This document shows, piece by piece, positions 3,214 through 52,726 of a stretch of DNA of 59,468 bases. Each line of letters opens with the position of its first letter. Position 1 is the first letter of the stretch. Source of the stretch: an uncultured bacterium (lineage in GTDB: Bacteria; Patescibacteriota; Saccharimonadia; Saccharimonadales; OFTM59); the NCBI GenBank assembly GCA_966685145.1, contig CBKXXB010000002.1, forward strand, positions 1 to 59,468. The letters are read 5' to 3'. The notes under the pieces are model-generated. The model saw only the letters and a program-made list of their open reading frames with translations, made no database searches and had not been told where the DNA came from. The position numbers and the translations under genes are program-made.

Positions 3214-3415
3214 GGTTATTTTTTAATGCCTGAATAAATAATCGAATGCCGACCACCAGAAAAACCAAACACCCTAGGTATAGCCAAAAGCTTCCGGTAT
3301 CTATCGCCCAAGAACCTAAGCCGTATGAAATTACTATGCTGACAGCGCCATAGAGGATGAGCGATAGCCGATCGCCCAACCACTTAGATTTTGTGATGTT
3401 ATTGGTTTTTGCCAT
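3194..3415 (-). CDS. Small two-TM membrane protein, hypothetical
   Basis: A 73 aa ORF with an ATG start and two clear hydrophobic helices. It overlaps the pnp stop by 17 nt and the UDG start by 20 nt. Confidence 0.45.
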   Translation of the reverse strand: MAKTNNITKSKWLGDRLSLILYGAVSIVISYGLGSWAIDTGSFWLYLGCLVFLVVGIRLFIQALKNNHGNKAK

Positions 3416-5549: not shown

Positions 5550-5682
5550 CTGTGGCCTTTCTGCGGCAGTCGTCTTCAGAGTGCAAATATACGGGCATAG
5601 CCCCTTGTGCTATCGTCGGGCAAGCGTATATCTGTTGCTCTGATGACGAACACCTAATCGTTTCGTTAATGTGCACAAGCTG

Positions 5683-5703
5683 AGTGTCTCCTTAAGAGAC
5701 ACT
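5683..5703 (-). promoter_or_regulatory. Stem-loop in the rpsO-pnp intergenic region (processing/attenuation candidate)
   Basis: A perfect 8 bp stem (AGTGTCTC/GAGACACT) with a 5 nt loop. No U-tract follows on the minus strand. Confidence 0.4.
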
Positions 5704-5717
5704 TGAGTCCATACAAA

Positions 5718-5984
5718 TTAGCGGCGGATACCGAGTTTCTTTATAAGATCAAGATATTGTTTACTATCTTTTTCGGCAATATATTTGAGGAGACGCTTGC
5801 GCTTGCCAACTGCTTGCAAGAGACCTCGACGCGCCATGTAATCATGCTTATTGTTCTTAAGATGAGCCGTAAGCTCTTTAATCTGCTCTGTTAATGCGCC
5901 CACTTGAACGGCACTGCTACCTGTGTCATTCTTCCCTGACTGTAGATCTTTGATAATACTCTGTTTCTTATCAGCTGAAATCAT
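5718..5984 (-). CDS. rpsO: 30S ribosomal protein S15
   Basis: 88 aa with GSSAVQVGALTEQIKELTAHLK and RRGLLQAVGKRKRLLKY. An AAGGAAG ribosome-binding site (RBS) lies upstream of the ATG. Confidence 0.95.
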   Translation of the reverse strand: MISADKKQSIIKDLQSGKNDTGSSAVQVGALTEQIKELTAHLKNNKHDYMARRGLLQAVGKRKRLLKYIAEKDSKQYLDLIKKLGIRR

Positions 5985-6034
5985 GTACTTCCTTAAAACT
6001 CTTAGATTACGAAGAGACTTGTAACGTTGGCTAT

Positions 6035-6063
6035 ATACTAGCAGACTCTTCCCTGTTAATCAA
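6035..6063 (-). promoter_or_regulatory. Sigma-70 type promoter candidate for rpsO-pnp
   Basis: The minus strand reads TTGATT, a 17 nt spacer, then TAGTAT. It lies about 50 nt upstream of the rpsO ATG. Confidence 0.5.
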
Positions 6064-6139
6064 GTACTTAAGTAAGCTAGTTGTATCAGCGGCTAGATTC
6101 CAGGCTCATACAGATGTTTACTAGCTAATAAAATAACTC

Positions 6140-7984
6140 CTAGATCGGCGCTAAAGGATCTTGGGCTTGGTTGTCGTCTTCTTGATTAGGCAATGGCTGT
6201 TCCCCGAAGGTCATAGTAGGCGGCGGTGGAGGCATCATAGGAGGCGGAACCGGAGGCGGCGGGTTAAGGTTGTTTACTTGAGCCGGCGCTTGACCATCTG
6301 TGGCCACATCACTTGGCGGAGCCGAATCAGCTGGCAAACCGGTGCTTTCATCAAGTTTTGTAATGTCAAAGTAATCGTTGGCTTGGGTTGTTGCAGCTGG
6401 CGGCTCTGCCTGAGCTTGAGGAGCGCTGTCTTCAACAGCTTTAGAATCATTATGTCCTAGGTCTAAATTAACCGGTTGGGCACCTAATGCCGCTATAGGC
6501 TCGAGGGGAGCATTTTCATCACCTGCTACTGCCTGGGTAACCGCATCTCGGGCGGCATCAAGATCGACTGATGCGTCAAGCGGTTCCGCTTTTTCCTCCG
6601 GCTGATCAACATGAGGACTTTCTACAGCTTGTTCTATGTCGGCAAGCGTCTGATCATCTTGGCTATCAGTGGCTGCAGTAGCTTGGCCGTCTTGGTTATC
6701 AGCAGCTGTAGTAGGAGGTTCCGGTTGAGCAGTATCTTGAGATTGAGACTGGTTATCGTCAACTACAGGCTCAGCAGCCGGAGGTTCCGAAGCGCTGACC
6801 GGAGCATCATGGCTTAAAAGCGGCATGCTGACAGGCGGCAAATTCAGCGGGTCCACAGATGAACCGGCATCTTCCGGCAAGGCGCTTGCGGTAAGCGTAC
6901 CGCCCATGGACGGTGGTTCCATCATGATTCTGGGAGTATCTGGCAAAGCGTTAGTGTGCTGGTCTTCTTCGGGCGGCGTAGAATCATGAGCCTCTTGATC
7001 TTCACCCGCAGACTCCTCCGAAGAAGGAGCCGCCTCTTCTTTCTCATCAGCTTGATCTTCTTCAGAATCTTGTGCTTGCCCGCCATTCTCATCACCACCA
7101 CCATCATCAGGCTGATTATGGTCAATGCGAAGGGCACCGTCTTCATCAGAGTTGTCATTTTCATCGTTATCACTGGCAGTTGTGCCCTCATTCTCAGCCT
7201 CAGAGGAAGTCTGTGCTGCTTCTTCGCTGACTGCTGCTTCCGGCGCTTCCTGCAGCTTAGTCGCAACAAGCTGCTGGTTCGCACCGGCCGCCATAAGTTT
7301 GGCACTGATGCTCATAGTAATTGAGGTAGTTCGCTGATTACTGAAGCGATCGGTTTCGGCAACTATGCCCGTCAAAAGAGCCGTAGCCATCTGAGCATCA
7401 AAAACATCGCTTTTCAGAGTAACGCCAAGCTCGGCTAGCATTTCACATAAGCTGCTGGCCTGAGGGTCAACCCAGGTGATGCTGCCCAAACTTCCGTTTG
7501 GCTGAGTGTTAATGGTCATAATAGTCGCATCGTGCAATATGCGGCCGTGAGCAGTTATTGCCTGGTCAAGGTCTTGCTGTTCATGCACCCCAAGAGCAAC
7601 CACCACGTCAACGTTAAAATCACCATGGCTGAATTCTAGGTCTTCCTGGCCGATAGAAGTACGGTACGGTGTAATAAATATCTTTACCTGCTTCTCTTCA
7701 ACCTTGTAACGGAGTTTGTCGGCTTTTGATTTATCAAGCGCGATAATAAAGTCGCGCAAGGAGTCAGTGTTGCTCTCCAGTGTCTGTTCTGGTTGGAGAA
7801 ATTCAATAGTAGAAGGAGTTTGCCCGCTGAAAACCGCCGTAGCGTGCTTGCCCAGCTTATTCAAAAGCAAAGTTAATCCTATAGCCCCGGCCAATTGGTC
7901 AACTGACGGATTATTGCTTACCGTCACTAGGACATTATTGGCTTCCTTGAGGCGTGCGACCGCTGACGCTTTCGGATTTTCCAT
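6140..7984 (-). CDS. Degenerate DHH/NrnA-like N-terminal domain fused to a ~370 aa acidic, Pro/Gln/Ala-rich low-complexity tail
   Basis: The N-terminal ~245 aa follow the DHH-family layout (LLTGIVAETDRF resembles motif IV), but the DxD and DHH motifs are replaced (NPSVDQLAG, ALGVHEQ). The remainder is low-complexity and ends in NPPPPVPPPMMPPPPPT. Confidence 0.7.
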   Translation of the reverse strand: MENPKASAVARLKEANNVLVTVSNNPSVDQLAGAIGLTLLLNKLGKHATAVFSGQTPSTIEFLQPEQTLESNTDSLRDFIIALDKSKADKLRYKVEEKQVKIFITPYRTSIGQEDLEFSHGDFNVDVVVALGVHEQQDLDQAITAHGRILHDATIMTINTQPNGSLGSITWVDPQASSLCEMLAELGVTLKSDVFDAQMATALLTGIVAETDRFSNQRTTSITMSISAKLMAAGANQQLVATKLQEAPEAAVSEEAAQTSSEAENEGTTASDNDENDNSDEDGALRIDHNQPDDGGGDENGGQAQDSEEDQADEKEEAAPSSEESAGEDQEAHDSTPPEEDQHTNALPDTPRIMMEPPSMGGTLTASALPEDAGSSVDPLNLPPVSMPLLSHDAPVSASEPPAAEPVVDDNQSQSQDTAQPEPPTTAADNQDGQATAATDSQDDQTLADIEQAVESPHVDQPEEKAEPLDASVDLDAARDAVTQAVAGDENAPLEPIAALGAQPVNLDLGHNDSKAVEDSAPQAQAEPPAATTQANDYFDITKLDESTGLPADSAPPSDVATDGQAPAQVNNLNPPPPVPPPMMPPPPPTMTFGEQPLPNQEDDNQAQDPLAPI

Positions 7985-8074
7985 ACTTTTTGTTTTTAAG
8001 CTTAACCTCTAGAGAAAAGACTACCATAGAACATAAGCACTGTCTATATGCAAAAATGCAAATGTCAGCTCTTC

Positions 8075-8103
8075 TTTACAAACAGTTTAGCTCTCGCTAT
8101 AGT
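8075..8103 (+). promoter_or_regulatory. Sigma-70 type promoter candidate for rpsT
   Basis: TTTACA, a 17 nt spacer, then TATAGT. An AAGGAAG RBS lies 6 nt before the ATG at 8145. Confidence 0.5.
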
Positions 8104-8144
8104 TGACCTTCGATTAAGCAATAACTTTAATAAGGAAGCTATAC

Positions 8145-8528
8145 ATGCCCATTATCAAATCTGCCCGTAAGCGCGTACGTGTAACTCGAAAAGCTACTGC
8201 ACGCAACGTTAAAACCAAGCGCAGTCTAAAGACCGCCCTTAAGTCGTTTCACTCCGCGCTCAGCGGCAACAAGAAGGCATCTGATGCCCACAAAAAGGCG
8301 CAAAGCGCTCTAGATAAGGCTGCCAAAAAAGGCATAGTTCACAAGAATAAGGTTGCACGTAAAAAACGCCAGCTAGCCGCCAAGGCCAAAGCTGCCGCCG
8401 GTGTCAGCAAGAAAGCTACGGTTAATAAGAAGCCCGTTGCAAAGAAATCCCCTGCTAAGAAAACTGCAACCAAAAAAGCCACGACCAAGAAGCCGGCTGC
8501 TAAGAAAACCGCGACCAAGAAGAAGTAA
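8145..8528 (+). CDS. rpsT: 30S ribosomal protein S20 with Lys/Ala/Thr-rich C-terminal extension
   Basis: The N-terminus (MPIIKSARKRVRVTRKATARN...KGIVHKNKVARKKRQL) is typical S20. The last ~40 aa are repeats of the KKxxAKK type. Confidence 0.9.
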   Translation: MPIIKSARKRVRVTRKATARNVKTKRSLKTALKSFHSALSGNKKASDAHKKAQSALDKAAKKGIVHKNKVARKKRQLAAKAKAAAGVSKKATVNKKPVAKKSPAKKTATKKATTKKPAAKKTATKKK

Positions 8529-8641
8529 CTGCCGGGCCTTGTCCGCCCATCCAATAACTAGAGCACCTGTGACGCTTGCGATTTATTTAACAGCTTTAGT
8601 TTGTTATCCGTATTACCTTGGTGATACAACCGGAGGCTGGA

Positions 8642-8878
8642 ATGGACAATAACCGTACATCTAAATTGGTTCCCCTTCTCCTGTTAATAACGATGTCCGT
8701 ATCAGTTATAGCCCTAGTACTGGCCGTAAACGCCAACAGGCAATCAAAGGATGCACAAGACAAAGTACGCACTCATCACCACAGCTCAACCACTTCCGGA
8801 ACTGAGGTTAAAGAGAACGACACCAGAGGCCCAGATTATCTGATGGACGGCTCCAACTCACCTGCCCCTACCCAATAA
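8642..8878 (+). CDS. Small membrane-anchored hypothetical protein
   Basis: An ATG at 8642 is preceded by GGAGG (8632-8636). There is one TM helix (LVPLLLLITMSVSVIALVLAV). The tracked TTG start at 8618 is less likely. Confidence 0.55.
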   Translation: MDNNRTSKLVPLLLLITMSVSVIALVLAVNANRQSKDAQDKVRTHHHSSTTSGTEVKENDTRGPDYLMDGSNSPAPTQ

Positions 8879-8897
8879 ATGCCGCCCTGGCTAAGAA

Positions 8898-9821
8898 TTA
8901 CGCCGAAATACTGATTAAAAATTGCTGCAGAGCTTCGTCCGGGTCAACTGAGGTAGTTTTCATTTTTATGTCCAGTTCGTACAAATCTTTTATCATTTTT
9001 TTCAGTTCTGCCTGGCTTAGTTTCCTGGCAATGTTCTGGCTTTTCTGTACTACGAAGGGATTAATACCAGCTTCTTTTGCTATGTCCTGAGGCTTTTTGT
9101 GTTCACTGCCAAACTTCACGATCGCCAGTACGTGCAACTGCCACGCCAGCATGGCTACTATTTGAGCTGGCTCAACTTTTAACGCCCTCTGTTCCTTATA
9201 CAAACTAAACACTCTTTTGAGGTTATTGGCGAACACTGCATCCAGCAGCTGGAAAATGGTGCTTTGCGGCGTTGGTTCAGTGAGCAGCTCTATAGTTTTG
9301 CGCGTAACAGAAGGGGCGTAGGTCAGCAGCTTTTTCAGCTCGCTTTCTAGTAACTGCTGGTTGGCACCGATGCGATCTACCAGGTATGATGCATCACCTA
9401 TAGATAGTGACCCGCCCCGTTTCTTGGCTTGTTCATGCAACCATTTCGGAAGTTCTTGAGGTGCCAGTTCATCAAACTGCTGAAACTCTGTCTTCTTCTG
9501 AAGCAGCTTGTAGTAGCTGCTTCGCTTGTCAGGTTTAGGCTCAACCACAATTACATCAGTTGAATCAGAAATTGATTCAACTAGTGACTCAAAGTTCTCC
9601 ACGAACTCTTTCTGAGTACCAGGGCGGTTCAACACGACTAGTTTCTTGCTAGTTAGAAATGGCAGGCTCTGCAGTGCCTCTGTTATTTTGGGGTACTCGA
9701 CCTCTTCGCAGTCAATCTTCTCGACTGCCATGTCGCCATACTGGCCAACAAAATCAGCCAGAAGACGATTATATTCGGCTCTCAACTGCAGTACATTATT
9801 GCCGCTCAGGCTAATTATCAT
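8898..9821 (-). CDS. holA: DNA polymerase III delta subunit
   Basis: About 307 aa with an overall HolA-like layout (N-terminal Rossmann-like part, C-terminal helical part). Its ATG at 9821 overlaps the mutM TGA stop (ATGA). Confidence 0.75.
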   Translation of the reverse strand: MIISLSGNNVLQLRAEYNRLLADFVGQYGDMAVEKIDCEEVEYPKITEALQSLPFLTSKKLVVLNRPGTQKEFVENFESLVESISDSTDVIVVEPKPDKRSSYYKLLQKKTEFQQFDELAPQELPKWLHEQAKKRGGSLSIGDASYLVDRIGANQQLLESELKKLLTYAPSVTRKTIELLTEPTPQSTIFQLLDAVFANNLKRVFSLYKEQRALKVEPAQIVAMLAWQLHVLAIVKFGSEHKKPQDIAKEAGINPFVVQKSQNIARKLSQAELKKMIKDLYELDIKMKTTSVDPDEALQQFLISISA

Positions 9822-10696
9822 GCGTTTTCCTCTTTTTGACAGCGAGGACAAATGTGGGTGCCGCGGCCGGCTACGCGGGTCTTGATAACGGTCTCACCGC
9901 ACCGCGGGCACGCTTCACCCTCGCGCCGAAAGACATTTGCGAAGCTTAGGTAACTCCCTTTTTTGCCCTCAGCGTTAACATAATTCTTATCCGTACTGCC
10001 GCCTTTCTCAATGCTCAGTTCAAGTATCGAGCGTAGTTCATCATATAATTTGTTCAATTTTGCAGAGGATAAGGTTCCAACACGCGTAGAAGGGTGGACC
10101 TTAGCTGCCCAGAGCGACTCGTCGGCATATATATTGCCAACGCCTGCAATCACAGTCTGATCCAGAAGCACCGCCTTGATAGTAGAATTAGGCCGGCGTT
10201 TGACCCGCTCACGGAAGTCTTTTGGCATAAAGGTAGCGGCCAACGGCTCAGGCCCTACTTTGCGGAAAAAGTCGATGTTTGGCACCTCAATTGTCGGCAA
10301 TAACCTAACCCAGCCAAACTTACGCTGATCATTGAAGAACAATCGGCTGCCGTCAGCAAAATCAAATACCACTCGAGTAGACCTGTCCGGTAGCTCACCT
10401 ATGAGAGAGTCATTAGGGTGTCCCGCACCGAACACCTCTCCACTACCCCTATATACCATTTGGCCAGTCATTTTCAGATGAATCACAAGTGAGTACTGAC
10501 TATCAAGCTCTATGAGCAGCACCTTTGCCCGACGCTTAACAGCGGTAACGGTAGCACCAATCAGAAATTCTTTAACATCGTCATCTGCATTCGGAAAACC
10601 TTTGGGCCAGTCATGCCAAACACTTATTATCTGCCTGCCAACAATAAATTGGGACAAACCAATGCGAATAGTTTCAACCTCAGGTAACTCCGGCAC
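9818..10696 (-). CDS. mutM: Formamidopyrimidine-DNA glycosylase
   Basis: N-terminal MPELPEVE catalytic motif, an H2TH region, and a C-terminal zinc finger CPRCG...CPRCQ. Confidence 0.92.
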   Translation of the reverse strand: MPELPEVETIRIGLSQFIVGRQIISVWHDWPKGFPNADDDVKEFLIGATVTAVKRRAKVLLIELDSQYSLVIHLKMTGQMVYRGSGEVFGAGHPNDSLIGELPDRSTRVVFDFADGSRLFFNDQRKFGWVRLLPTIEVPNIDFFRKVGPEPLAATFMPKDFRERVKRRPNSTIKAVLLDQTVIAGVGNIYADESLWAAKVHPSTRVGTLSSAKLNKLYDELRSILELSIEKGGSTDKNYVNAEGKKGSYLSFANVFRREGEACPRCGETVIKTRVAGRGTHICPRCQKEENA

Positions 10697-10750
10697 TTTA
10701 CTCTCTTCTCCCTACTTCTTTATTGTAACAGCGGACAGTACAATGAAAGC

Positions 10751-10990
10751 ATGACTAAAAGCCTGTCAGATATTTTGCGTGAGCAGCATTTCGAGGAGCC
10801 GCCAGAGGTAGTAATAATTAAGCAGTTCCTAGCAGACAAGTACCAGACGACTTGTAAAGTCAGTTTGGCATCTAATCAGATAGTAATTATCGTTACGTCG
10901 GCGGCGTTAGCTGGCACGCTCAGGATGCACCTAACAGAGCTGAAAAGGCTCTGCAATACTGATAAGCGGCTCTTGATAAGGATTAGCTAA
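10751..10990 (+). CDS. DUF721 (DciA-like) minimal protein
   Basis: 79 aa. The pattern M.SL.DIL...CKVSLASNQIVIIVTSAALAGTLRMHLTELKRL...LLIRI matches the DUF721 signature as I remember it. Confidence 0.5.
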   Translation: MTKSLSDILREQHFEEPPEVVIIKQFLADKYQTTCKVSLASNQIVIIVTSAALAGTLRMHLTELKRLCNTDKRLLIRIS

Positions 10991-11571
10991 CTTTTCGCGT
11001 AATTCGGGAGAATAGCCACAAGCTCTCTCTTAAACTGAGCAAAGTCCTTGTAAACTATAGCCTGCATTCCTTCTGCCTGCGCTGCCGTGCAGTAACGGTC
11101 TATATCATCAACCATTACCGCTTCATTAGTACCAACACCTAGACGCTTGCATATTAACTTATAGATTCGAGGATCCGGCTTGGTCATTCCTACCTGATAT
11201 GAAAATACTATTTCATCAAATAAAGCCTGTTCTTTTTGTGTCAAAAAATAGTCTGTAATCCAAGGGGATGCTACGTTGCTAAGCAGGCCGATTTTATAGC
11301 CTTCTTCTCTCAAATCACGTATATGGTCCAATAGAGCGTTATTCTTAACCACTTCCTGTCCAGCAGCATCTTCAAGCTCAGTAAAAGTACGGCCTGTAAT
11401 TTCTTTAATTTGTTCAGTGCTGTCGCTCTTACTTATCAGGCCGGCATCATAAGAGCGATGTACCTCGCGTACCGATTCAATATCTGTATTCTCAGGCAGG
11501 CTATCAATAAACGCCCGCCATGTATCTGTGGTCAAGACTCCAAAACAATCAAAAATAATCGCCCTTATCAC
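10987..11571 (-). CDS. HAD-superfamily hydrolase (subfamily IA-like)
   Basis: Motif I is IIFDCFGVLT (nucleophile Asp present, residue D+2 is Phe). LLSNV and VMVDDI motifs are present. The start codon is GTG. Confidence 0.75.
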   Translation of the reverse strand: MIRAIIFDCFGVLTTDTWRAFIDSLPENTDIESVREVHRSYDAGLISKSDSTEQIKEITGRTFTELEDAAGQEVVKNNALLDHIRDLREEGYKIGLLSNVASPWITDYFLTQKEQALFDEIVFSYQVGMTKPDPRIYKLICKRLGVGTNEAVMVDDIDRYCTAAQAEGMQAIVYKDFAQFKRELVAILPNYAKS

Positions 11572-44360: not shown

Positions 44361-46007
44361 CTACATCATCCCCATTCCGCCGGGCATACCGCCGCCGGCT
44401 GCCGCTGGAGTTTCTTTCTCAGGTACGTCTACAACTAAGGCGCCCATGGTCATGCTGGTTCCGGCAATCGAAACGGCATTCTGAATAGCTTCCTTAGTGA
44501 CGCGTGTCGGATCGACGACGCCCACGGTTTTAAGATCGACAAGCTTGGTCGGCTCATTAACGTCGACACCCTGCCCCGGCTTAGCAGCCTTGACAAGAGG
44601 CAACCATTCATCAGCATTCAGCCCGGCGTTGTCCAAAAGAATACGGAAAGGCTGCTCAAGTGCGCTTCTCAGCAGCTGGGCACCCGCAGCTGTAGAATCG
44701 TTACCAACAATTTTGACTTCTTTTGCCAGGTTAATAAGCGTTACGCCACCGCCAGGCACAATACCCTCATCGAGCGCCGCCTTAACAGCAGCTACAGCGT
44801 CATCAACGCGGAACTTCTTTTCCTCGATTTCGGTCTCGGTCGCACCACCCACCTTAATTACGGCCACCTTACCGCTCAGTGCAGCCCGGCGCTTCTCGAG
44901 ATTTTCCTTGTCATATTCGCTGGTAGCGGCAACGACCTGAGCATTTATCTGGTCAATGCGCGCCTTAACTTCACTGACAGAGCCGTCACCCTCGATAATG
45001 GTGGTCTCGTCTTTGGTGACAATGACTTTACGGGCCGTACCGACCATGCTCATATCAGCGTTTTCAAAGGTGTAACCCTGGTCCTCGCTGATGACGGTCG
45101 CACCAGTCAAAATGGCAATGTCGTTCAAGATATCTTTGCGCCGGTCACCGAAGGCCGGAGCCTTGATGGCGACAGTGTTAAAGACGCCTTTTAGGCGGTT
45201 TAGCACCAATGTGCCGAGCGCTTCGCCCTCTACATCATCAGCGATCAGAACCAGCTCTTTCTTACCGGACTGCGCCAACTGCTCAAGCAGCGGCAGAAAT
45301 TCTTGGATAGAGCTTATTTTCTTATCTGTTATAACTATGGCAGGCTTGTCATAGACAGCTTCCATACGCGCAGCATCGGTCACCATGTAGGGGCTGACGA
45401 AACCGCGGTCAAACGTGAAGCCTTCTACTACTTCACTCTCAAGCGCCAAGCCCTGACCCTCTTCGACAGTCACCACACCTTCTTTGCCCACCTTGTCGAT
45501 AACATCGGCAATCAGGTTGCCGATTTCGGCGTCACCGGCAGAAATTGTTGCGACTTCAGCTACGCGCTGCTTGTTGGCTTTGATATCTTCACTCAAGCCT
45601 CCGAGCTTATTGATGACATCATGCGCGGCCGCTTCCAGGCCTTTGCGCAGCTGCATAGGGTTATGCCCGGCAGCTATAAGCTTATTGGCTTCATTCAGAA
45701 TGTGATAAGTGAGTACGGTAACCGTTGTCGTACCGTCACCAGCGACGTCGTTCATCTTGCTGGCAGCTTGCTTGATAAGCTCGGCACCGACTTTGTAGCC
45801 CAGTGTTTCGTCGTCGGCATCAGCCAATTCGACGCCCTTAGCTACAGTTACGCCGTCGTGAGTTACGGTCGGGTTTCCATAGCTCTTGCTAATAACAACG
45901 TTTCGCCCCTTCGGACCCATGGTTGTTTTGACCGCGTCATAGAGCACCTTAGCTCCGCCAAGTACTCTGCGGCGGGCATCATCGTCATAAAAAACTTTCT
46001 TTGCCAT
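44361..46007 (-). CDS. groL: Chaperonin GroEL
   Basis: AKKVFYDDDARR N-terminus, AGDGTTTVTVL motif and C-terminal GGMPGGMGMM. Confidence 0.97.
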   Translation of the reverse strand: MAKKVFYDDDARRRVLGGAKVLYDAVKTTMGPKGRNVVISKSYGNPTVTHDGVTVAKGVELADADDETLGYKVGAELIKQAASKMNDVAGDGTTTVTVLTYHILNEANKLIAAGHNPMQLRKGLEAAAHDVINKLGGLSEDIKANKQRVAEVATISAGDAEIGNLIADVIDKVGKEGVVTVEEGQGLALESEVVEGFTFDRGFVSPYMVTDAARMEAVYDKPAIVITDKKISSIQEFLPLLEQLAQSGKKELVLIADDVEGEALGTLVLNRLKGVFNTVAIKAPAFGDRRKDILNDIAILTGATVISEDQGYTFENADMSMVGTARKVIVTKDETTIIEGDGSVSEVKARIDQINAQVVAATSEYDKENLEKRRAALSGKVAVIKVGGATETEIEEKKFRVDDAVAAVKAALDEGIVPGGGVTLINLAKEVKIVGNDSTAAGAQLLRSALEQPFRILLDNAGLNADEWLPLVKAAKPGQGVDVNEPTKLVDLKTVGVVDPTRVTKEAIQNAVSIAGTSMTMGALVVDVPEKETPAAAGGGMPGGMGMM

Positions 46008-46116: not shown

Positions 46117-46383
46117 TTATTTGATGGTTGCTAATATATCTTCCTCTTTAACTAAAATGTACTCTTCGGCACCGACTTTTACGTCAGTAGTGCTGTAGCT
46201 TTTGTAGACAATACGATCGCCAGATTTAACTTCTTTGGCCTGTTTGCCTACTGCTACGACCTTGGCAATTTTAGGTTTTTCCTGTGCCTTGTCAGGCAAA
46301 TAAAGGCCGCTGGCAGTCTTTGTCTCTGCCTCTTCCTGCTGGGCTACTACGTAATCTGCCAGTGGTTGAATTGGGACACTCAT
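46117..46383 (-). CDS. groS: Co-chaperonin GroES
   Basis: 88 aa with TASGLYLPD (mobile loop) and GDRIVYKSY motifs, located upstream of groEL. Confidence 0.9.
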   Translation of the reverse strand: MSVPIQPLADYVVAQQEEAETKTASGLYLPDKAQEKPKIAKVVAVGKQAKEVKSGDRIVYKSYSTTDVKVGAEEYILVKEEDILATIK

Positions 46384-46426: not shown

Positions 46427-46453
46427 TTAGCACTTTAATAGTGAGAGTGCTAA
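46427..46453 (-). promoter_or_regulatory. CIRCE operator (HrcA binding site)
   Basis: TTAGCACTT-N9-GAGTGCTAA against the consensus TTAGCACTC-N9-GAGTGCTAA. An extra TAGCACTC half-site lies at 46458-46465. Confidence 0.85.
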
Positions 46454-46465
46454 CTACTAGCACTC

Positions 46466-46495
46466 ATACTACCTAATTGCCAAAAGTCCTGTCAA
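46466..46495 (-). promoter_or_regulatory. Sigma-70 type promoter candidate for groES-groEL
   Basis: The minus strand reads TTGACA, an 18 nt spacer, then TAGTAT. CIRCE lies immediately downstream. Confidence 0.55.
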
Positions 46496-46512: not shown

Positions 46513-47241
46513 TTACTGCTGATCAATAATCCACAGCTTAAACCGGCTGTCTGCAATAGGGTTTTCTAGTCTTTCGACAATAACATTGTGAGGTCCCCAA
46601 TCCTGCAAATACTCGTCATAACGTAAGCCCTCGGCGCGCAAGGCACCTACAAGCTTCATGTGTGTTTCATGCAGCCGATCATCTAGCTCACCCAACGTTC
46701 CTACACTCAACGAGCCTCGCAGACGGGCTAACTTGTCTCGCTTGAAGGCTGTAGCCCTACCGGGTTTATGTATGTCCTCCAGGGTAATGCCGCCACCAAT
46801 CTGCTGCATCAGCAAATACTGGCGAGCTTCGTCTTCTGACACATACAGGCCATAGTTTGCCGGTGTACTAACCCAATGCGGAAGGTGCTCCTGAATGACA
46901 ACACGCAGATTCTCCATGCGCTCAAAGTATTCCAAAAAGGACTTGCCGCTCCACGGTTTGGCTTCTTTGACCGCCAGCTTGTTGCCTATTGCATAGACGG
47001 TGCCGTCACCGCCTTCTGCCACATAAGTACGGTTCGGGTGGTACAGCGCAGATTCGGCAGCCAAACTCCCTGCTTGTGCGGCTACCAACTGCCGCCGGTA
47101 CGAATTCATTTCTCCGTGAAAAGCCCGATGCTCAGAGATTAGCGAAGCCAAACTGCCGGTCGTTATAGCAAAGCCGTCTCGGAGCTCGTAGCGATGCCAC
47201 TGTTCGCCCCCTGGCCGGTCTATGCTTTCTCTTGTAATCAT
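46513..47241 (-). CDS. Minimal protein-kinase-like fold protein ending at the DFG-equivalent
   Basis: GGDGTVYAIGNKLAVKE (Gly-loop plus VAxK-like), LLMQQIGG (hinge-like), DWGPHN (DxxxxN catalytic-loop-like) and LWIIDQQ-stop (DFG-like). Confidence 0.55.
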   Translation of the reverse strand: MITRESIDRPGGEQWHRYELRDGFAITTGSLASLISEHRAFHGEMNSYRRQLVAAQAGSLAAESALYHPNRTYVAEGGDGTVYAIGNKLAVKEAKPWSGKSFLEYFERMENLRVVIQEHLPHWVSTPANYGLYVSEDEARQYLLMQQIGGGITLEDIHKPGRATAFKRDKLARLRGSLSVGTLGELDDRLHETHMKLVGALRAEGLRYDEYLQDWGPHNVIVERLENPIADSRFKLWIIDQQ

Positions 47242-47275
47242 AATGCGCCTTAACCTAACTCGCGTTTGACTTAAA

Positions 47276-47809
47276 TTAAGCGCCCCGTTCCCGAATATCT
47301 GATAAAGACGGCAGGGCTAGATTGGTAGGGAGTTCGGAAGGTAGAGGTGTTTGCTGCAGCAAAAAACGCGTTTCCATAAGAAGCCGTCCTAGGTTGTTCT
47401 GGCCCCGGCCGCTGCCTGGTGGACAGACACCCCAGTACCTGTCTCCCCAGGTGTTGCCTTCAATAAGCTCTTCTTCACCTGTCGCAACTAAAAGTCCGGC
47501 AAGTTCAGGATCGCGGGCAAACTTTTGCGTCACATAGAATCGCATTACATCAAGCTTTATATTGTCCCATTCAGGCCGTACTTCATACTGGCCACTCATG
47601 ATAAGCTGACGGGCCGTTCGCTTGGCTGATCGGCCATCAGGAGCAAGTAAAACCGCGTTTCTTCCTAATTGGTCCGCAAACTTACCAGCCTGGTATGCAT
47701 GTTCTACTGTAGGCACCACAATGCCTTCAGGCACGACCACCACGCCATGCTCCAGCTCGAACATGCTGCTTAAGAAATGATGCTCGCCTCTAAAGCGTTC
47801 AACTGCCAT
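47276..47809 (-). CDS. NADAR (YbiA-like, DUF1768) family N-glycosidase / ADP-ribosyl hydrolase
   Basis: FLSSMF, TVEHAYQAGKF, GNTWGDRYWGV and NNLGRLLMETR align along the full length with E. coli YbiA. Confidence 0.85.
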   Translation of the reverse strand: MAVERFRGEHHFLSSMFELEHGVVVVPEGIVVPTVEHAYQAGKFADQLGRNAVLLAPDGRSAKRTARQLIMSGQYEVRPEWDNIKLDVMRFYVTQKFARDPELAGLLVATGEEELIEGNTWGDRYWGVCPPGSGRGQNNLGRLLMETRFLLQQTPLPSELPTNLALPSLSDIRERGA

Positions 47810-48488
47810 GCGTAGACCTACTAGTCGTCTTTTCAGACGGCAGAAGACCTGTGACTGCCATGCTAAGCTCGTTCAGCGCCGTTTCAAGCCCTGTGGCTAT
47901 GCTTTCGGACATGGCACGTAGGCCATCTAGATCGGTAGCGATATCCTCGGCCGCTAAATCATCAAGCTCTAACATAATATTCCCCAGATTTTCTTCCACT
48001 GCCACTTTAGTGATGCCTGAACGGTCCATCAACCATTCTGTAGACCTGTAGGTTTCTTGGCAGAGTGCTTCGAAAACCACAGGTGCCCTTTCTTGGCTGG
48101 CAAGAGCAGAAATAACAGCATCAAGTCTGCCGATCCGGCCCTCTTCTACCGCATCGACCCAAGACTCAAACTCAGATTCAAATTTACTAAGAACTCGTTC
48201 GACTTGCGACTGATAATTAACCAGCTCCTTTATAGCCAGTTCAGTTTTCTCGTATTCATCAAGCTTTTGAGGACAATTAGCAAAAAGCGTCTGAACAGCT
48301 GTACGGCATTCGCTAAACACGTCCGCTAGCCTCAGCTGCTGCTCTAAAGCATCAAGCCGATCGCTGAACGGATCTCCCTTACTGCGTACTGCTGCTTGAA
48401 TCAGGAGCGTAAGTTCTCTACGGTCCTTAGTTTTGCAGACTTCGGCAACTTGCGACGGCAAAGGTGAGGTGTGGCTGCTAGTTACCAT
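47799..48488 (-). CDS. Hypothetical all-helical / coiled-coil acidic protein
   Basis: 229 aa and heptad-like, rich in E/L/A. It overlaps the upstream gene by 11 nt and the downstream NADAR gene by 11 nt. Confidence 0.55.
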   Translation of the reverse strand: MVTSSHTSPLPSQVAEVCKTKDRRELTLLIQAAVRSKGDPFSDRLDALEQQLRLADVFSECRTAVQTLFANCPQKLDEYEKTELAIKELVNYQSQVERVLSKFESEFESWVDAVEEGRIGRLDAVISALASQERAPVVFEALCQETYRSTEWLMDRSGITKVAVEENLGNIMLELDDLAAEDIATDLDGLRAMSESIATGLETALNELSMAVTGLLPSEKTTSRSTHGS

Positions 48489-49884
48489 CTCTGCCCCTCA
48501 TAATCGTTAACATACCCTTAAGTCGTCTTTGATTAGCGTTCGGGTTTTGTCTGAAGTCAATGCGCCCGTATGGCCTAGCAATACTGGCCAATGAGGGATC
48601 AGCAATGATGCCTACGCTCCTTAAGACCTTTCTCATTGAGCTACAGTCGTTATAAAAGCCATAGTTTACTGCACAGTGAAGCCCGGTAATATGCGCTTGG
48701 GCACTCCAACGTGCTGCCGGTGCATGATGCGCCCGATAGTACGACCTGACAGGTATTGAACCTTTTGTTTCGTCATAGGGATCTATTTCTAGACCATCCT
48801 CAATTCTGCCCTTGGAAGCGGCAATTACGTTTATCTCCAAACACCCTGCCTCAATATACTCGCGCGCTTTTGGATCATTCATTAACTTGCCGTAAACACT
48901 TCGCATTTGAGAGCCGCTGATTGTCCAGTCGTCAAGAAGAACAAGCCTGGCATTCTCGGGCCGTGCATCAAGCTCATCCATGGAAAATACCACTCTGTCC
49001 CCATATCTGCGCATTTCTTCTTCGGTGAAGCTTTGCGCGATTTTATCTCTAAGATATGCGTCACTTTTCGGTCGTCTGTTGTGTCTGTATCTGTTCAATT
49101 CTCCCACCTCAGTCAAAACACAGATTCTACGCGCCGGATCGTCCTCAAGATACTGCTTCCAATGCTCACCCAAGCCTTGAACCGCTTCGTTAAACTCCGG
49201 GTTGCCGATAAATGTTAAGTTATCAAGCATGCTGCGGGCTTGCTCAGCAAGATCAGCCGTACGACGCTTAAGGCCCAGGCCTTTTCTGTCCGTTACTTTT
49301 ACGAACTGCGTAAGAAAGTCTCTTAGTTCCACTAGACCTTTGTGCTCTGTTTTAGGTCCGCTCGGCTTTGTGCCTTTGTTACCATTGCCTGTATTGCGAA
49401 AATAAAGAAACTGCGTAGTACGAGACTTGTCTTTTACCTGATCGGCAAAGAGCGGAGCATCCTTGACATAGCCCCGCGTTTCAAGGCTTTTAGTGGTTTC
49501 TGCCAGTTCCGGCCGAGCGGCATGTTCATGAGCCCATCCACGGAACTGCGGCGTAATAACAGTGGTTCCGGGTTCTGCGCCATCTCTGAGCTCTTCAAGC
49601 AGCCGGCGAAAAGACGGGTCTACATAGAGAGCCTCCGCTTCAAAGTCATTAACTATCTCCTGCTCGGCTTCACGATCATCTACTTCTTTTCGTAATAATG
49701 CTTCTGGCGTTTCAACAATCCCGCCGAGCGGTGCAGCCAAAGTAAAGTCTGGTGGAGGCAATTCCTCTGCCCCTGGCAATAGCGATAAGCCTTCTTGAGC
49801 ATCTGTTCCGCTTCCGGTAAGGCCAGTTGCTAGCTCCTGGTCTATTTCCGGTATGGATCCAAGTTGTTGTTTCTGGTGTGGCAT
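48478..49884 (-). CDS. Hypothetical protein with C-terminal type I phosphoribosyltransferase-like domain
   Basis: The PRPP-loop-like motif ARLVLLDDWTISGSQM (aa 312-327, nt 48904-48951) is preceded by RRICVLTEVGE. The N-terminal ~230 aa are unassigned, and the first ~60 aa are acidic and low-complexity. Confidence 0.55.
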   Translation of the reverse strand: MPHQKQQLGSIPEIDQELATGLTGSGTDAQEGLSLLPGAEELPPPDFTLAAPLGGIVETPEALLRKEVDDREAEQEIVNDFEAEALYVDPSFRRLLEELRDGAEPGTTVITPQFRGWAHEHAARPELAETTKSLETRGYVKDAPLFADQVKDKSRTTQFLYFRNTGNGNKGTKPSGPKTEHKGLVELRDFLTQFVKVTDRKGLGLKRRTADLAEQARSMLDNLTFIGNPEFNEAVQGLGEHWKQYLEDDPARRICVLTEVGELNRYRHNRRPKSDAYLRDKIAQSFTEEEMRRYGDRVVFSMDELDARPENARLVLLDDWTISGSQMRSVYGKLMNDPKAREYIEAGCLEINVIAASKGRIEDGLEIDPYDETKGSIPVRSYYRAHHAPAARWSAQAHITGLHCAVNYGFYNDCSSMRKVLRSVGIIADPSLASIARPYGRIDFRQNPNANQRRLKGMLTIMRGRDGN

Positions 49885-49933
49885 GACGGTTTTAAAAATT
49901 AACGCTTATGTTTAATTTAGCATAAATTTGCTA

Positions 49934-50311
49934 TTATTGCAAATCTTCATGCTCGCCAATAAGGCGTCTGGCGGCCTGGTTAAGCAGCTGCCGCTTCCCT
50001 GCCTGCACGGCTATCTCGCCCACATAGCGAAGCCTTTTAAGAGGGTGCGTAAAAAGATGGGGCCTATCCGCCCTTAATTGCTCTACTGTGGCAGCGATTT
50101 CCGCATCCACTTCGACCAACCAGCTGATTATTGCTTTCCTAGGAATTGATGGGCCTGTGTCTAATTCCGAAGGATTATTCGCGGGCGCTTCATTTCCTAG
50201 TCCTAAACCCGAGAGTGCCGGTTCATGGGCTGAACCTAACTCAGAAGCTTCAACTTCTACTATACCACTTTCAGCAAGTGTTAGCTCAGGGCGCTCACCG
50301 ATGTCATTCAT
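49934..50311 (-). CDS. Hypothetical small acidic protein
   Basis: 125 aa with an ATG start, a disordered N-terminal half and a helical C-terminal half. It is the first gene after murE in the same orientation. Confidence 0.5.
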   Translation of the reverse strand: MNDIGERPELTLAESGIVEVEASELGSAHEPALSGLGLGNEAPANNPSELDTGPSIPRKAIISWLVEVDAEIAATVEQLRADRPHLFTHPLKRLRYVGEIAVQAGKRQLLNQAARRLIGEHEDLQ

Positions 50312-50347
50312 ATGTATATATTACAATTTTCCACGAAATTTGTCAAC

Positions 50348-51631
50348 TCACTTGGCTCTTTGGAGCATTGTACGAGCAACTTCTCTATCGTCCCAGGGGA
50401 TGACGCGGCCGCGCATGTTTCTGCCGGTCTCGTGCCCAAGCCCGGTTATATAGACCGCATCGCCGGGCATAGCATCCTGTAAAGCCTGCTTTATGGCCGT
50501 CAAACGGTCGGGGATAACCTGGGTCTTATTGGTAGCTTTTGCCTTAAGGATTCCCGCATAAACCTGATCAATGATCTCCTGCGAATTTTCGGTGTAGGTT
50601 TCATCGTCTGTTAAGTAAATATGGTCAGCGTAGGTACCGGCTACCTCGCCCATCAATGGTCGCTTCTGCTTGTCACGATCGCCCGTAGCTCCAAAGACAA
50701 TGCGGACCTTGCCCTTAGTAAACTCCTGTAAGGTTTCAAGGGCGTTTTGTATCGAATCGGGCGTCACGGCATAGTCTATGAGCACACTGAATTTCTGCCC
50801 CGCCTGTACCGGCTCCATACGGCCCGCCACCGCTTTAAGATTGGCGATACCGGTCACGATATCCCTAGGCTTAATCCCGATAGTCATGCCTACGGCTGCA
50901 GCCTGTGCGGCGTTGTAGAGATTGAACGTACCGATAAGAGACGTGGCTATGGGTAGCGGAGCGGCCTTGGTCAGTAGCGTTGCCTGTGAGCCCTCCGGCG
51001 CTAGCTTAATATCAGAGATCTGAATGTCGCACCCCTTTGTCTTGCCTACTGACACAACTTCTCCCTTTGCGCGTTCAGCAAAAAAATCAAACCACTTATC
51101 GTCACGGTTCAGCACGGCCGTCTTTGCCCCGTAGTTCGTCAGCAGCAATGCTTTGGCCGCGGCGTAGTTTTCCATCGTTTTGTGATAATCCAGGTGTTCA
51201 GGAGTAAGATTGGTTACGACTGCCACATCGATACGGACGCCCATAATCCTATCTTGGTCTAGAGCATGGCTAGGCACCTCCAGCACGACCCAGTCAGCCC
51301 GCGCCCTCTTGGCCCGCGCAAACAGGCTCTGAACCTCGGACTGTTTCTCTAGTGTTCTGGTGGTCGTGCGCGGGAACGCTTTCCCGCCGATTTCTATCAT
51401 CGGCGTGGTCATCATGGCAGTTTTGTGGCCACCTGCTTTCAAAACTTCATTGATAAATGCAGACGTAGTGCTCTTGCCGTTCGTACCGGTCACCGCCACT
51501 ACTTTCATACCCTTGGCCGGGAAGCCGTAACGCATCTGCCAGGCCATGCCCCGGCTCTTGCGATAGGTTTTTTCAAGCGTTCGAACAGCCGATTTCGGCA
51601 CAACTTTCCGCACCAGCTTCTTAGGATTCAT
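50348..51631 (-). CDS. murE: Mur ligase, MurE-like (UDP-MurNAc-L-Ala-D-Glu:diamino-acid ligase)
   Basis: VVAVTGTNGKSTT P-loop, DYAVTPDS and ITGLGHETGRNM...PWDDREVA at the C-terminus. The ATG at 51631 is preferred. The N-terminal domain is short. Confidence 0.75.
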   Translation of the reverse strand: MNPKKLVRKVVPKSAVRTLEKTYRKSRGMAWQMRYGFPAKGMKVVAVTGTNGKSTTSAFINEVLKAGGHKTAMMTTPMIEIGGKAFPRTTTRTLEKQSEVQSLFARAKRARADWVVLEVPSHALDQDRIMGVRIDVAVVTNLTPEHLDYHKTMENYAAAKALLLTNYGAKTAVLNRDDKWFDFFAERAKGEVVSVGKTKGCDIQISDIKLAPEGSQATLLTKAAPLPIATSLIGTFNLYNAAQAAAVGMTIGIKPRDIVTGIANLKAVAGRMEPVQAGQKFSVLIDYAVTPDSIQNALETLQEFTKGKVRIVFGATGDRDKQKRPLMGEVAGTYADHIYLTDDETYTENSQEIIDQVYAGILKAKATNKTQVIPDRLTAIKQALQDAMPGDAVYITGLGHETGRNMRGRVIPWDDREVARTMLQRAK

Positions 51632-51655
51632 ACCAGTAATGATACAGTATGAGGC

Positions 51656-52726
51656 ATGCGAATTCTTGGAATCGAAACGAGCTGTGACGAGACGGCGGCA
51701 GGTATTGTTGAGGATGGGCACAGACTGCTATCCAACATCGTTCTGAGCAGCATGGACCTGCATGCCGCCTACGGGGGTGTCGTGCCCGAAATTGCCGCGC
51801 GCAGCCATATCGAGGCAATGATGCCTGTAATCAGCCAAAGTTTGAACCAGGCTAAGTGCAGTTGGGATGATATTGACGGCATCGCCGTTACTTACGGAGC
51901 CGGCTTGGGCGGATCACTGCTTGTAGGAGTGCTTAGCGCTCGAACGCTCGCCATCGTCAAAAACAAGCCCTTATACGGAATTAACCACGTTGAGGGACAT
52001 ATTTATGCTAACTTCCTGAATGATGTTGCCCCTGCTCTTTCTTCTGACTACCGGTTACCGGATTCCAAACCCGAGTTCCCTATGTTGGGGCTCATAGTCT
52101 CAGGCGGCCACAGCCAGTTGGCAATTTGGAAGGATCACTTCGATTACACGCTGCTAGGCCAAACGACAGATGATGCCATTGGTGAAGCCTTTGATAAGGT
52201 AGCTAAGATACTGGGTCTGCCCTACCCCGGCGGTCCCAGCGTAGGCAAAAAAGCTTTGGAGGGTGACCCGAAGGCATTTGAACTACCAAAAGCAAAGTTA
52301 ACCAACAAATATGACTTCAGTTTCTCGGGACTTAAAACGGCCGTTTTAAGGCTAACGCAAGCACAAATCGGTGAAGACCACACCTTCCCGTCCGCAAGGC
52401 TGTCAGAGCGCCTTTCTGAAGCTCAGAAAGCCAACATTGCAGCCAGTTTTCAACGCGTAGCCATTGAAACGGTCGTTGATAAGACGGTTCTGGCTTACGA
52501 GGAGTTTCGGCCCAAATCAGTAGTTATCGGCGGCGGCGTGGCAGCCAGCCCGGAATTGCGGCGCCAATTAGCCGAGCGGCTGCCTCTACCTATAAGCTAT
52601 ACCGATCCGAAGCTCTGTACCGACAACGGAGCCATGATTGCCGCGCTTGGCTGTTACAAGGCCATGCACAGTCAACAGCCGGACGATCCCTATAGCCTCG
52701 ATATAGCTCCAAATTTAAGTATGTAA
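51656..52726 (+). CDS. tsaD: tRNA N6-adenosine threonylcarbamoyltransferase
   Basis: MRILGIETSCDETAAG, HIEAM, GINHVEGH and SGGHS motifs. Confidence 0.95.
   Translation: MRILGIETSCDETAAGIVEDGHRLLSNIVLSSMDLHAAYGGVVPEIAARSHIEAMMPVISQSLNQAKCSWDDIDGIAVTYGAGLGGSLLVGVLSARTLAIVKNKPLYGINHVEGHIYANFLNDVAPALSSDYRLPDSKPEFPMLGLIVSGGHSQLAIWKDHFDYTLLGQTTDDAIGEAFDKVAKILGLPYPGGPSVGKKALEGDPKAFELPKAKLTNKYDFSFSGLKTAVLRLTQAQIGEDHTFPSARLSERLSEAQKANIAASFQRVAIETVVDKTVLAYEEFRPKSVVIGGGVAASPELRRQLAERLPLPISYTDPKLCTDNGAMIAALGCYKAMHSQQPDDPYSLDIAPNLSM

Follow-up and report, generated by a model that had tools for sequence, protein, structure and literature searches.

What do the genes between murE and the groESL operon do in a saccharibacterial genome, when none of them resembles a housekeeping gene? 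The locus that raises this question lies on a 59,468-nt stretch of DNA (the window) from an uncultured member of the Saccharimonadales (GCA_966685145.1, contig CBKXXB010000002.1), in which five co-directional open reading frames (ORFs) on the minus strand, here g1 to g5, received no housekeeping assignment from Pfam, NCBIfam, PADLOC or PHROGs. An earlier note, made from the letters alone, had taken all five for one cassette, organised around the pairing of a phosphoribosyltransferase (PRTase)-like protein with a NADAR N-glycosidase, and had suggested a writer/eraser or toxin/antidote module. The analysis reported here bears out the five ORFs and their coordinates, and the comparison with related loci leaves g2-g3-g4 as the conserved unit, without g1 or g5. 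Judged by profile and neighbourhood searches, these three genes appear to represent an undescribed PRTase family restricted to the Candidate Phyla Radiation (CPR), with a partner family of its own and an unprecedented accessory that is either a NADAR or a TIM barrel. The reading that we prefer, tentatively and with nearly half of our belief, is that g2 is an effector using phosphoribosyl pyrophosphate (PRPP), that it is restrained by its acidic partner g3, and that the NADAR protein g4 reverses or turns over an N-phosphoribosyl product.

The ORFs are the following (ORF table):

49934-50311, minus strand: g1, 125 aa
48478-49884, minus strand: g2, 468 aa, type I phosphoribosyltransferase-family protein, PRTase-CE/retron-III-A-like
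47799-48488, minus strand: g3, 229 aa, acidic all-helical partner
47276-47809, minus strand: g4, 177 aa, YbiA-type NADAR N-glycosidase
46513-47241, minus strand: g5, 242 aa, narrow orphan family, neighbour of groES

The conserved unit

How firmly do the three central genes belong together? Gene neighbourhoods were compared at 36 loci, labelled L001 and so on and including that of the window. A homologue of g3 adjoins the PRTase gene at 25 of them, and an iterative hidden Markov model (HMM) search among 435 ORFs recruited nothing else to the g3 family. The trio itself recurs in related genomes, with a NADAR gene in third position at five loci (the window, L001, L003, L006 and L007) and with a gene for a BtpA/SgcQ-like phosphate-binding TIM barrel in that position at 10 loci spread across the tree. 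Within the window, g2 and g3 share 11 nt (ATGGTAACTAG, 48478-48488), as do g3 and g4 (ATGGCAGTTGA, 47799-47809), and the earlier note had read this exact geometry as a sign of coupled translation of interacting partners. The two overlaps are indeed present, and tight coupling is conserved, the PRTase and partner genes overlapping or abutting at 21 of the 23 loci that have them in this order, so that the trio is probably translationally coupled; the exact figure of 11 nt is, however, coincidental, since the homologous PRTase/partner junctions elsewhere measure -14, -8, -4, 0, +1 and so on.

It might be objected that the locus holds no functional unit at all, only unrelated ORFs packed together in a small, gene-dense genome. 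Saccharibacterial genomes are compact, short overlaps of unrelated genes are common in them, and g1 and g5 do lack any link with the other three. Such packing would nevertheless have to produce the same PRTase-partner pair at 25 of 36 loci, across many genomic contexts, as well as the five NADAR and ten BtpA triads, and this conservation of neighbourhood largely refutes the objection, which we find barely credible. What did not survive the comparison is the five-gene cassette: only g2-g3-g4 are co-conserved, g5 is kept independently of them, and g1 has a homologue only at L003.

A phosphoribosyltransferase family with an intact PRPP loop

The protein encoded by g2 consists of an extension and a core, and the loop that identifies it lies in the latter:

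49513-49884, minus strand: acidic N-terminal extension, residues 1-124, isoelectric point (pI) 4.3, mostly predicted disordered
48550-49512, minus strand: conserved family domain, residues 125-445, a small alpha/beta N-subdomain followed by the phosphoribosyltransferase (PRT) core
48907-48939, minus strand: PRPP-binding loop, L316-Q326, LLDDWTISGSQ, with two acidic residues and an SGxQ ending

The AlphaFold model of g2 has a pLDDT below 50 at residues 1-67 and 103-125 and of about 90 across most of residues 130-440, and the conserved domain is basic (pI 8.8). Foldseek placed HGPRT and UPRT at the top of the PDB matches to this core (probability 0.98, E about 5e-3, TM, by target, about 0.4), while PDB sequences searched with a profile of 108 g2-family sequences gave no match at E <=1. 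Alignments reveal a set of invariant or near-invariant positions (R155, E180, K273-S274-D275, D318-D319, S323-G324, Q326, E350, G364, Y382, G401 and H403), several of which fall in the PRPP-binding loop. The whole of LLDDWTISGSQ is invariant in a 10-sequence alignment; among the 108 sequences, conservation at D319, S323/G324 and Q326 is complete or at least 90%; and the pattern DDW-x-[IVM]-SG-x-Q occurs in 147 of 154 family proteins, so that the PRPP-loop-like motif pointed out in the earlier note is genuine. The same 154 proteins carry a KSD motif in 145 cases and a GxHSSVDYDF-like motif in 119. The intact loop, together with a predicted core that best matches HGPRT and UPRT, albeit with modest scores, makes a PRT fold likely for g2. 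Of the outcomes that the earlier note had named as refuting its reading, neither the lack of a PRT fold nor the lack of co-conservation was encountered.

To which PRTases is the family related? In a library scan, g2 matched only the Pfam family PRTase-CE (PF24390) with E 1.5e-5 and 25.4 bits, below the gathering cutoff of 27, in a match that spans only about half of the Pfam model, and the PADLOC model PRTase_III-A, which describes the retron III-A effector, with E 4.7e-4. Across the family, PRTase-CE is matched at E <0.01 by 62 of 108 members (best 1e-8) and is the only Pfam family matched consistently; PRTase_III-A, matched by 45 of 108 (best 3.8e-9), is the best match in the defence library; and the general Pribosyltran model is matched by a single member of the 108. 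By these profiles the g2 family would be a sister group related to PF24390, rather than a demonstrated member of it. As a relative of type I PRTases with an intact PRPP loop, g2 should bind PRPP or another 5-phosphoribosyl ligand. Two further searches can be dealt with briefly: a likeness between the Legionella effector LnaB and residues 81-219 of g2 (phmmer E 0.049) disappeared with the 108-sequence profile and is put down to chance, and Foldseek against BFVD returned nothing informative for g2. No pyrophosphatase domain was detected in g2.

Does an intact loop necessarily mean that g2 is an enzyme? PRT folds have been reused as PRPP-binding regulators, PurR of Bacillus and PyrR being examples, and it is conceivable that g2 is a catalytically silent sensor of PRPP or nucleotide status whose output passes through its partner g3, the more so as the basic core could bind nucleic acid and one family member sits in a purine operon. 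Yet a Pfam scan of g2 and its relatives detected no DNA- or RNA-binding domain, the acidic DD pair, KSD, E350 and H403 are conserved as catalysis would require, the purine-operon context is not conserved, and a sensor would leave the link with a NADAR or a TIM barrel unexplained. A purely regulatory g2 is thus very unlikely in our view.

Distribution and architecture of the family

A word-indexed search found only 10 relatives of g2; an exhaustive search by profile, covering 1.84 billion cluster representatives, raised this to at least 556 clusters at 50% identity (E <=1e-3), with 344 representatives at E <=1e-30. Almost all belong to Saccharimonadia, in agreement with a scan of GTDB species genomes that gave 29 loci, nearly all from Saccharimonadia and a few with other labels. 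Neither Pfam nor NCBIfam has a model of its own for this family. Its proteins range from 320 to 2240 aa around one common domain of about 330 aa, equivalent to g2 residues 125-445, which is preceded by acidic, hypervariable N-terminal extensions (median 104 aa, range 1-558 aa) and followed by little else (median C-terminal extension 8.5 aa). With a constant enzymatic domain joined to hypervariable N-terminal extensions, and with its tandem arrays, its giant fusions and one fusion to a domain resembling ADP-ribosyltransferases (ARTs), the family has an effector-like architecture.

The ART-like fusion is P0164 (L124 6001-7854, 617 aa), a distant relative of g2 in which an N-terminal ART-like domain (aa 61-244; DUF3990 6.5e-7 and ART-PolyVal 4.9e-4, both sub-threshold) precedes the PRTase-family domain; its gene adjoins nusA and is without a partner gene. 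DUF3990, a member of the ART clan of Pfam, is also seen in the Rhs protein Rhs5, whose C-terminal, predicted toxin region contains no other recognisable domain. The giants are P0127, of 2240 aa (L033 5920 onward), and a protein of 1894 aa (L035 5965 onward); in both, the PRTase domain is N-terminal and about 1900 aa of low-complexity Pro/Thr-rich sequence follows, with a Gly/Ala-rich hydrophobic stretch near residues 1100-1180 of P0127. A Pfam scan of the tail, made for P0127 only, gave no domain. At both loci the gene order is reversed, running partner, BtpA-like barrel, PRTase.

Tandem PRTase paralogues without an acidic partner gene are found at L009, where there are five copies (about 3171-11000), and at L029 (2685-7200), where there are two large ones of 775 and 720 aa. 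At L004 (1-4416) and L012 (1-2179) the PRTases belong to a subfamily of about 605-845 aa whose long N-terminal region is unannotated, and there a downstream protein of 111-117 aa replaces the g3-type partner. Twelve genomes of oral-type Saccharibacteria (L017-L028, e.g. L019 3444-7702) have a syntenic F2-F3-PRTase-partner cluster that adjoins mraZ-rsmH or rpsF-ssb; F2 (620-730 aa, e.g. 660) and F3 (134-141 aa, e.g. 139) have no Pfam match.

Could these proteins be meant for another cell? Saccharibacteria live as epibionts, and one may imagine that g2 is exported into the actinobacterial host or into competitors, with g3 as the immunity protein and the NADAR as back-up immunity. Hardly any members of the family are known outside Saccharimonadia and a few other CPR bacteria, the downstream gene is immunity-like in being fast-evolving, acidic and overlapping, giant fusions with a glycine-rich hydrophobic stretch and an ART-PolyVal/DUF3990 fusion exist, and there is the affinity to PRTases of polyvalent proteins that phages and conjugative elements inject. 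All of this is purely circumstantial, however, and no secretion genes lie nearby; a transmembrane-like segment was seen in only 1 of 154 family proteins, signal peptides and secretion motifs not having been specifically searched for; and classical polymorphic toxins have the opposite plan to a constant C-terminal enzyme behind a variable N-terminus. Export is therefore quite improbable.

The acidic partner

The g3 protein is strongly acidic (pI 4.5; 4.18-4.86 across its family) and has almost no invariant residues, its family being fast-evolving. Pfam, NCBIfam, PADLOC and PHROGs contain no relatives of it, and profile searches of Pfam and the PDB gave only generic helical bundles. The protein is non-enzymatic, and we propose that it acts as a neutraliser or regulator of g2. 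A partner that is adjacent, overlapping, fast-evolving and acidic, as opposed to the basic PRT core, favours a conflict-type role for the pair.

The third position: NADAR or TIM barrel

The assignment of g4 as a NADAR/YbiA protein in the earlier note holds: it matches the Pfam NADAR model with E 6.4e-21 and 75.7 bits against a cutoff of 35.1, phrog_1017 with 1.3e-32 and TIGR02464 with 1.1e-15, and, among proteins of known structure, E. coli YbiA (2B3W) with 3.7e-15 and the NADAR structure 8BAU with 7e-3. Aligned with YbiA, it keeps the EHxxQAxKF and DxYWG motifs (VEHAYQAGKF against SEHYFQAQKF, and GDRYWG against NDAYWG). NADAR subfamilies differ in a residue of the last strand, which is Glu in YbiA, Asp in DarT1-linked NADARs and His in those of phages; at the level of the sequence alignment, LLME is common to g4 and YbiA. 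By its sequence, g4 is clearly a YbiA-type NADAR with intact catalytic motifs, and looks active.

The NADAR is, though, not a fixed member of the unit. The pairing of PRTase with NADAR that the earlier note put at the centre of its module is co-conserved, with g3 between the two, within a single clade; elsewhere the BtpA-like barrel takes its place. All nine of the barrels tested match TIGR00259 (best 3e-10), albeit with about 32 bits against a curated cutoff of 153, and the one member scanned against Pfam, that of L005, reaches 38.6 bits against a PF03437 cutoff of 30; weak similarity to PRAI, HPS and CutC was also seen. The third position is thus interchangeable between a NADAR and a phosphate-binding barrel. 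In a rough neighbour-joining tree the PRTases linked to a NADAR fall into a single clade that is nested in the BtpA-linked ones, which suggests a single displacement of the barrel by the NADAR. That both occupants are enzymes for ribosyl-N or sugar-phosphate substrates again favours a conflict-type role.

Might the same facts not be explained more simply by metabolism? Saccharibacteria depend on scavenged nucleotide precursors, and YbiA acts on riboflavin-pathway intermediates. One could therefore picture lineage-specific handling of nucleotides or PRPP in which g2 is a salvage or biosynthetic PRTase, g3 a structural or regulatory subunit, and the NADAR or barrel a repair or next-step enzyme that acts on an N-phosphoribosyl intermediate. 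The intact PRPP loop of g2 would suit this role, as would the closeness of g4 to YbiA and to the riboflavin-intermediate N-glycosidase model, the choice of sugar-phosphate barrels with weak PRAI/HPS similarity as alternative third genes, strong purifying selection with synteny kept across oral species, and the lack of a mobile-element link. One distant member, in a Peribacteria metagenome-assembled genome (L034 3211-8196), even lies between purF and purD, downstream of folD. That link to a purine operon (folD-purF-X-purD) was followed up and given up as an apparent one-off, the relatives at L123, L124 and L126 being in unrelated contexts; not being conserved, it supports neither side strongly.

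Several observations sit badly with a metabolic role. The best profiles are those of conflict-system PRTases, the general Pribosyltran model being matched by just that one member, and a metabolic enzyme would not usually come with hypervariable extensions, tandem arrays, giant fusions and an ART-domain fusion. Presence at the same locus is patchy among close relatives. Replacing a TIM barrel by a glycosidase would change the product of any pathway, and a PRTase followed by an N-glycosidase would amount to net hydrolysis of PRPP, a futile cycle. On balance, a metabolic unit seems unlikely, but it is the main rival of the reading that we prefer.

Comparison with known systems

PRTases are known as toxins or effectors in ShosTA, PsyrTA, retron III and Ophion, and it is natural to ask whether g2-g3-g4 is a variant of one of them. 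The nearest by profile is the type III-A retron. In Retron-Eco11 the effector is held inactive in a complex and, once activated, its PRTase depletes PRPP (PMC12746101). The Eco11 effector loop, VVILTDTIGSGNQ, is built like that of g2, from acidic residue(s)-x3-SG-x-Q (PMC12746101), and its PRT core resembles purine PRTases, as does that of g2. The differences are nevertheless considerable. There is no Rfam match (msr/msd) and no reverse transcriptase (RT) in the window, where the neighbours of g2 are murE, g1, g3-g5 and groES, and no RT domain in the annotated loci L001-L006, the other loci not having been checked; g2 and its relatives have no C-terminal winged helix (no HTH match); and the retron motif Gx14PNNxP is found in none of the 154 family proteins, which have their own GxHSSVDYDF and KSD motifs. 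Moreover, the partner of the retron effector is RT-msDNA whereas that of g2 is an acidic helical protein, and the g2 family is confined to the CPR. With no RT, noncoding RNA (ncRNA), winged helix or retron motif, g2 was rejected as a retron effector.

A distinct clade of PRTases has been described in polyvalent proteins of phages and conjugative elements (Iyer et al. 2017; PMC5512222), and to judge from its name, the Pfam family PRTase-CE probably refers to this clade. Some g2-family members are likewise giant multidomain fusions, and P0164 has an ART-PolyVal-like domain; by contrast, the g2 family was not found in collections of phages, plasmids or viral contigs.

With ShosTA and PsyrTA the module would share the principle of a PRTase toxin that is neutralised by the product of an adjacent gene. 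In ShosT, an N-terminal accessory domain is joined to a C-terminal PRT domain that carries a long flexible loop, and mutation of its DD pair abolishes toxicity (PMC11961720). The antitoxin in these systems is, however, DprA-like and acts without binding the toxin, and there is no NADAR. PADLOC models of ShosT, ShosA, PsyrT and PsyrA matched neither g2 nor g3, and the first three matched none of the 108 relatives.

For the NADAR, the obvious counterparts are DarT1-NADAR and YarT-YbiA, in which NADARs are proven antidotes to N-ribosylating toxins (PMC11125620, PMC11543638), the latter pair using a plain YbiA-type NADAR like g4. The writer in both is an NAD+-dependent ADP-ribosyltransferase of ART fold, unlike the PRPP-type PRT fold of g2, and so the adduct expected here would be 5-phosphoribosyl and not ADP-ribosyl. 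The module differs further in its additional non-enzymatic partner g3 and in that its NADAR is replaceable by a TIM barrel. No ART or DarT model in Pfam or PADLOC matched any of g1-g5, an ART-like domain being present only in the distant P0164. Finally, E. coli ybiA lies in a LexA-controlled operon with dinG, rhlE and ybiB, and YbiB is PRTase-like and binds nucleic acid (PMC11125620). The ybiB-ybiA arrangement is a loose precedent for a NADAR beside a PRTase-like gene, without an acidic partner. YbiB has a TrpD2-type fold, not that of a type I PRT, and no homology between it and g2 was detected. A PRTase with an acidic partner and a NADAR occurs in no described system, as the earlier note had also supposed, and the combination is new. 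In its presumed working it would come closest to the PRTase effector or toxin modules and to the NADAR antidote pairs.

The slot between murE and groES and its other occupants

The flanks of the five ORFs are those named in the earlier note, murE on one side and CIRCE-groESL on the other, with the following features:

50348-51721: Mur ligase gene (murE), upstream flank of g1
50318-50346, minus strand: sigma-70-like promoter candidate, TTGACA-17-TAATAT, 10/12 hexamer matches, in the 36-nt gap between murE and g1
46466-46495: promoter-like site ahead of CIRCE-groES (sequence scan)
46427-46453, minus strand: CIRCE operator, TTAGCACTC-N9-AAGTGCTAA, an exact element with 0 chance matches expected
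46117-46383: groES, downstream flank
44361-46007: groEL, downstream flank

CIRCE marks the start of a separate groESL unit and is the lower boundary of the region, whose GC content is unremarkable. A scan saw no terminator-like site between g1 and g5, and together with the candidate promoter between murE and g1 this means that g1-g5 may form one transcript; the promoter is a positional hint only, as the region-wide scan gave 6 sites against 5.2 expected, not above chance.

Is the module a resident of this slot or a visitor? The two closest relatives, L036 (GroEL 95% and MurE 82% identical to those of the window organism) and L038 (89% and 76%), have no cassette there, whereas the more remote L001 (79% and 52%) has the PRTase-partner-NADAR set in the same slot, and L006, also more distant than L036 and L038, has the cassette between murE and groES as well. 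Since the closer relatives hold unrelated cargo and the distant L001 holds the module, the gap between murE and groES is best seen as a slot with turnover of cargo, in which the PRTase module behaves as accessory content. In L036 (6163-6942) and L038 (2225-6968, including two paralogous proteins of about 230 aa) the cargo is unannotated, and the stretch from murE to g5-groES appears to be a hotspot for orphan cargo. L003, the closest cassette relative, has a 488-aa AAA+ ATPase (4013-5479; RuvB_N/AAA matches) in the place that g5 takes in the window, between the NADAR and groES.

The g5 gene has only three homologues in 5.8 billion proteins. Those of L036 and L038 (64% and 59% identical) stand immediately upstream of groES, with unrelated ORFans between murE and g5 and no PRTase; L001 and L003 lack g5. 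It is a separate resident gene beside groES and not a member of the module, although possibly co-transcribed with it. Kept only in a narrow clade, it is always directly upstream of the CIRCE-groES promoter region. The earlier description of g5 as kinase-like found no backing in HMM or PDB searches: Pfam, NCBIfam, PADLOC and PHROGs gave only noise at E <=1, no PDB kinase was matched by the single sequence or by a profile, and an AlphaFold model from a 3-sequence alignment was unusable (pLDDT 40). G77GDGTV, K92, D214-W-G-P-H-N219 (D-x4-N) and D240 are invariant in three g5 homologues, and resemble kinase motifs by eye only. The protein ends two residues past the putative metal-binding D240 (WIIDQQ), so that a kinase-like g5 would be without the whole C-lobe beyond the DFG-equivalent.

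The g1 protein is acidic (pI 4.9), disordered in its N-terminal half and helical in its C-terminal half, and matches nothing in Pfam, NCBIfam, PADLOC or PHROGs. Its sole homologue is the gene upstream of the L003 PRTase (51% identity, 6e-31), and small ORFs upstream of the PRTase at other loci are unrelated to it. It is a lineage-specific upstream gene whose membership in the module is uncertain.

A PRPP-using effector under restraint?

How might the three proteins work together? In the scheme that we prefer, g2-g3-g4 would be a three-gene, conflict-type enzyme unit placed in a variable slot between murE and g5-groES. The g2 protein would consume PRPP by transferring 5-phosphoribose to a nitrogen acceptor, which could be a free base, a nucleotide or a base in nucleic acid; alternatively, it might simply drain PRPP, as the activated Retron-Eco11 PRTase does. 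By binding the basic PRT core, g3 would keep g2 inactive, in the manner of an antitoxin, an immunity protein or a regulator. The g4 protein would then hydrolyse the N-glycosidic bond of the phosphoribosyl-N product, with the result either that the modification is undone, g4 serving as antidote, or that the acceptor is regenerated and PRPP is drained catalytically. In sister lineages the BtpA/SgcQ-like phosphate-binding TIM barrel would take over at the same third position. The target may be the cell itself (in an abortive or toxin-antitoxin-like response) or another cell, for example the host of the epibiont. Apart from the partner and the third position considered above, a conflict-type role is favoured by the affinity of the g2 family's profiles to PRTase-CE and to retron III-A effectors, and accessory behaviour by the cassette being absent from the slot in the closest relatives L036 and L038 and present in the distant L001 and L006.

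A number of points weigh against this scheme. Structural support for the PRT fold is modest, with a Foldseek E of about 5e-3 and a TM of 0.4 for the predicted model, and in the profile comparison the g2 of the window is just below the Pfam threshold for PRTase-CE. The NADAR is present in one clade only; none of 80 NADAR loci outside Saccharimonadia has a PRTase-family, g3 or BtpA-like gene; and the nearest NADAR relatives outside Saccharimonadia are ordinary stand-alone genes. At L119 (2876-5705) a BtpA-like barrel gene occurs without a PRTase within 5 kb. Across eight oral species of Saccharibacteria, conservation and synteny of the PRTase (95% identity) and its partner (91%) equal those of MraZ and RsmH, which looks more like a core lineage function than like an arms-race gene. 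Nor is there a mobile-element signature, no integrase, flanking repeats, RT or ncRNA having been seen near the module and the window having no Rfam matches, and the g2 family, absent from phage and plasmid records (tblastn) and from IMG/VR contigs, is chromosomal. Toxicity, a g2-g3 complex, the substrate and the writer/eraser chemistry are things that we infer.

Two side results belong here. The L119 barrel gene follows one for a 695-aa acidic protein, and the barrel thus occurs outside the PRTase module as well. An origin of the module from a mobile element or phage was considered and dismissed, given the empty searches of phage and plasmid records and IMG/VR contigs and the lack of flanking repeats.

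The scheme has a bolder version, in which the unit would be the PRPP-dependent counterpart of ADP-ribosylation warfare: on a nitrogen, exocyclic or in the ring, of a base in nucleic acid (or on another macromolecule) the PRTase would set 5-phosphoribose as a mark, either toxic or regulatory, the NADAR would erase the mark, and g3 would gate the writer. This we put forward as a speculation with a rather small chance of being right. If true, it would mean that a reversible "phosphoribosylation", using PRPP instead of NAD+, is specific to ultrasmall epibiotic bacteria.

What the unit may mean for Saccharibacteria

PRTase effectors, such as those of retron III, ShosTA, PsyrTA and Ophion, are an emerging, as yet poorly understood class of enzymes with roles in immunity or as toxins, whose acceptor substrate is mostly not known. 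The g2 family is paired with enzymes that work on ribosyl-N or sugar-phosphate groups; this confines the chemistry to an N-phosphoribosyl product, and makes the NADAR a handle for identifying it. The family is large, with its 556 or more clusters, and is found in Saccharibacteria that include human oral species, in which most lineage-specific genes lack an assigned function. Should the PRTase modify macromolecules, it would represent a new reversible modification; should the unit prove to be metabolic after all, it would supply a missing piece in the handling of PRPP by these nucleotide-auxotrophic epibionts.

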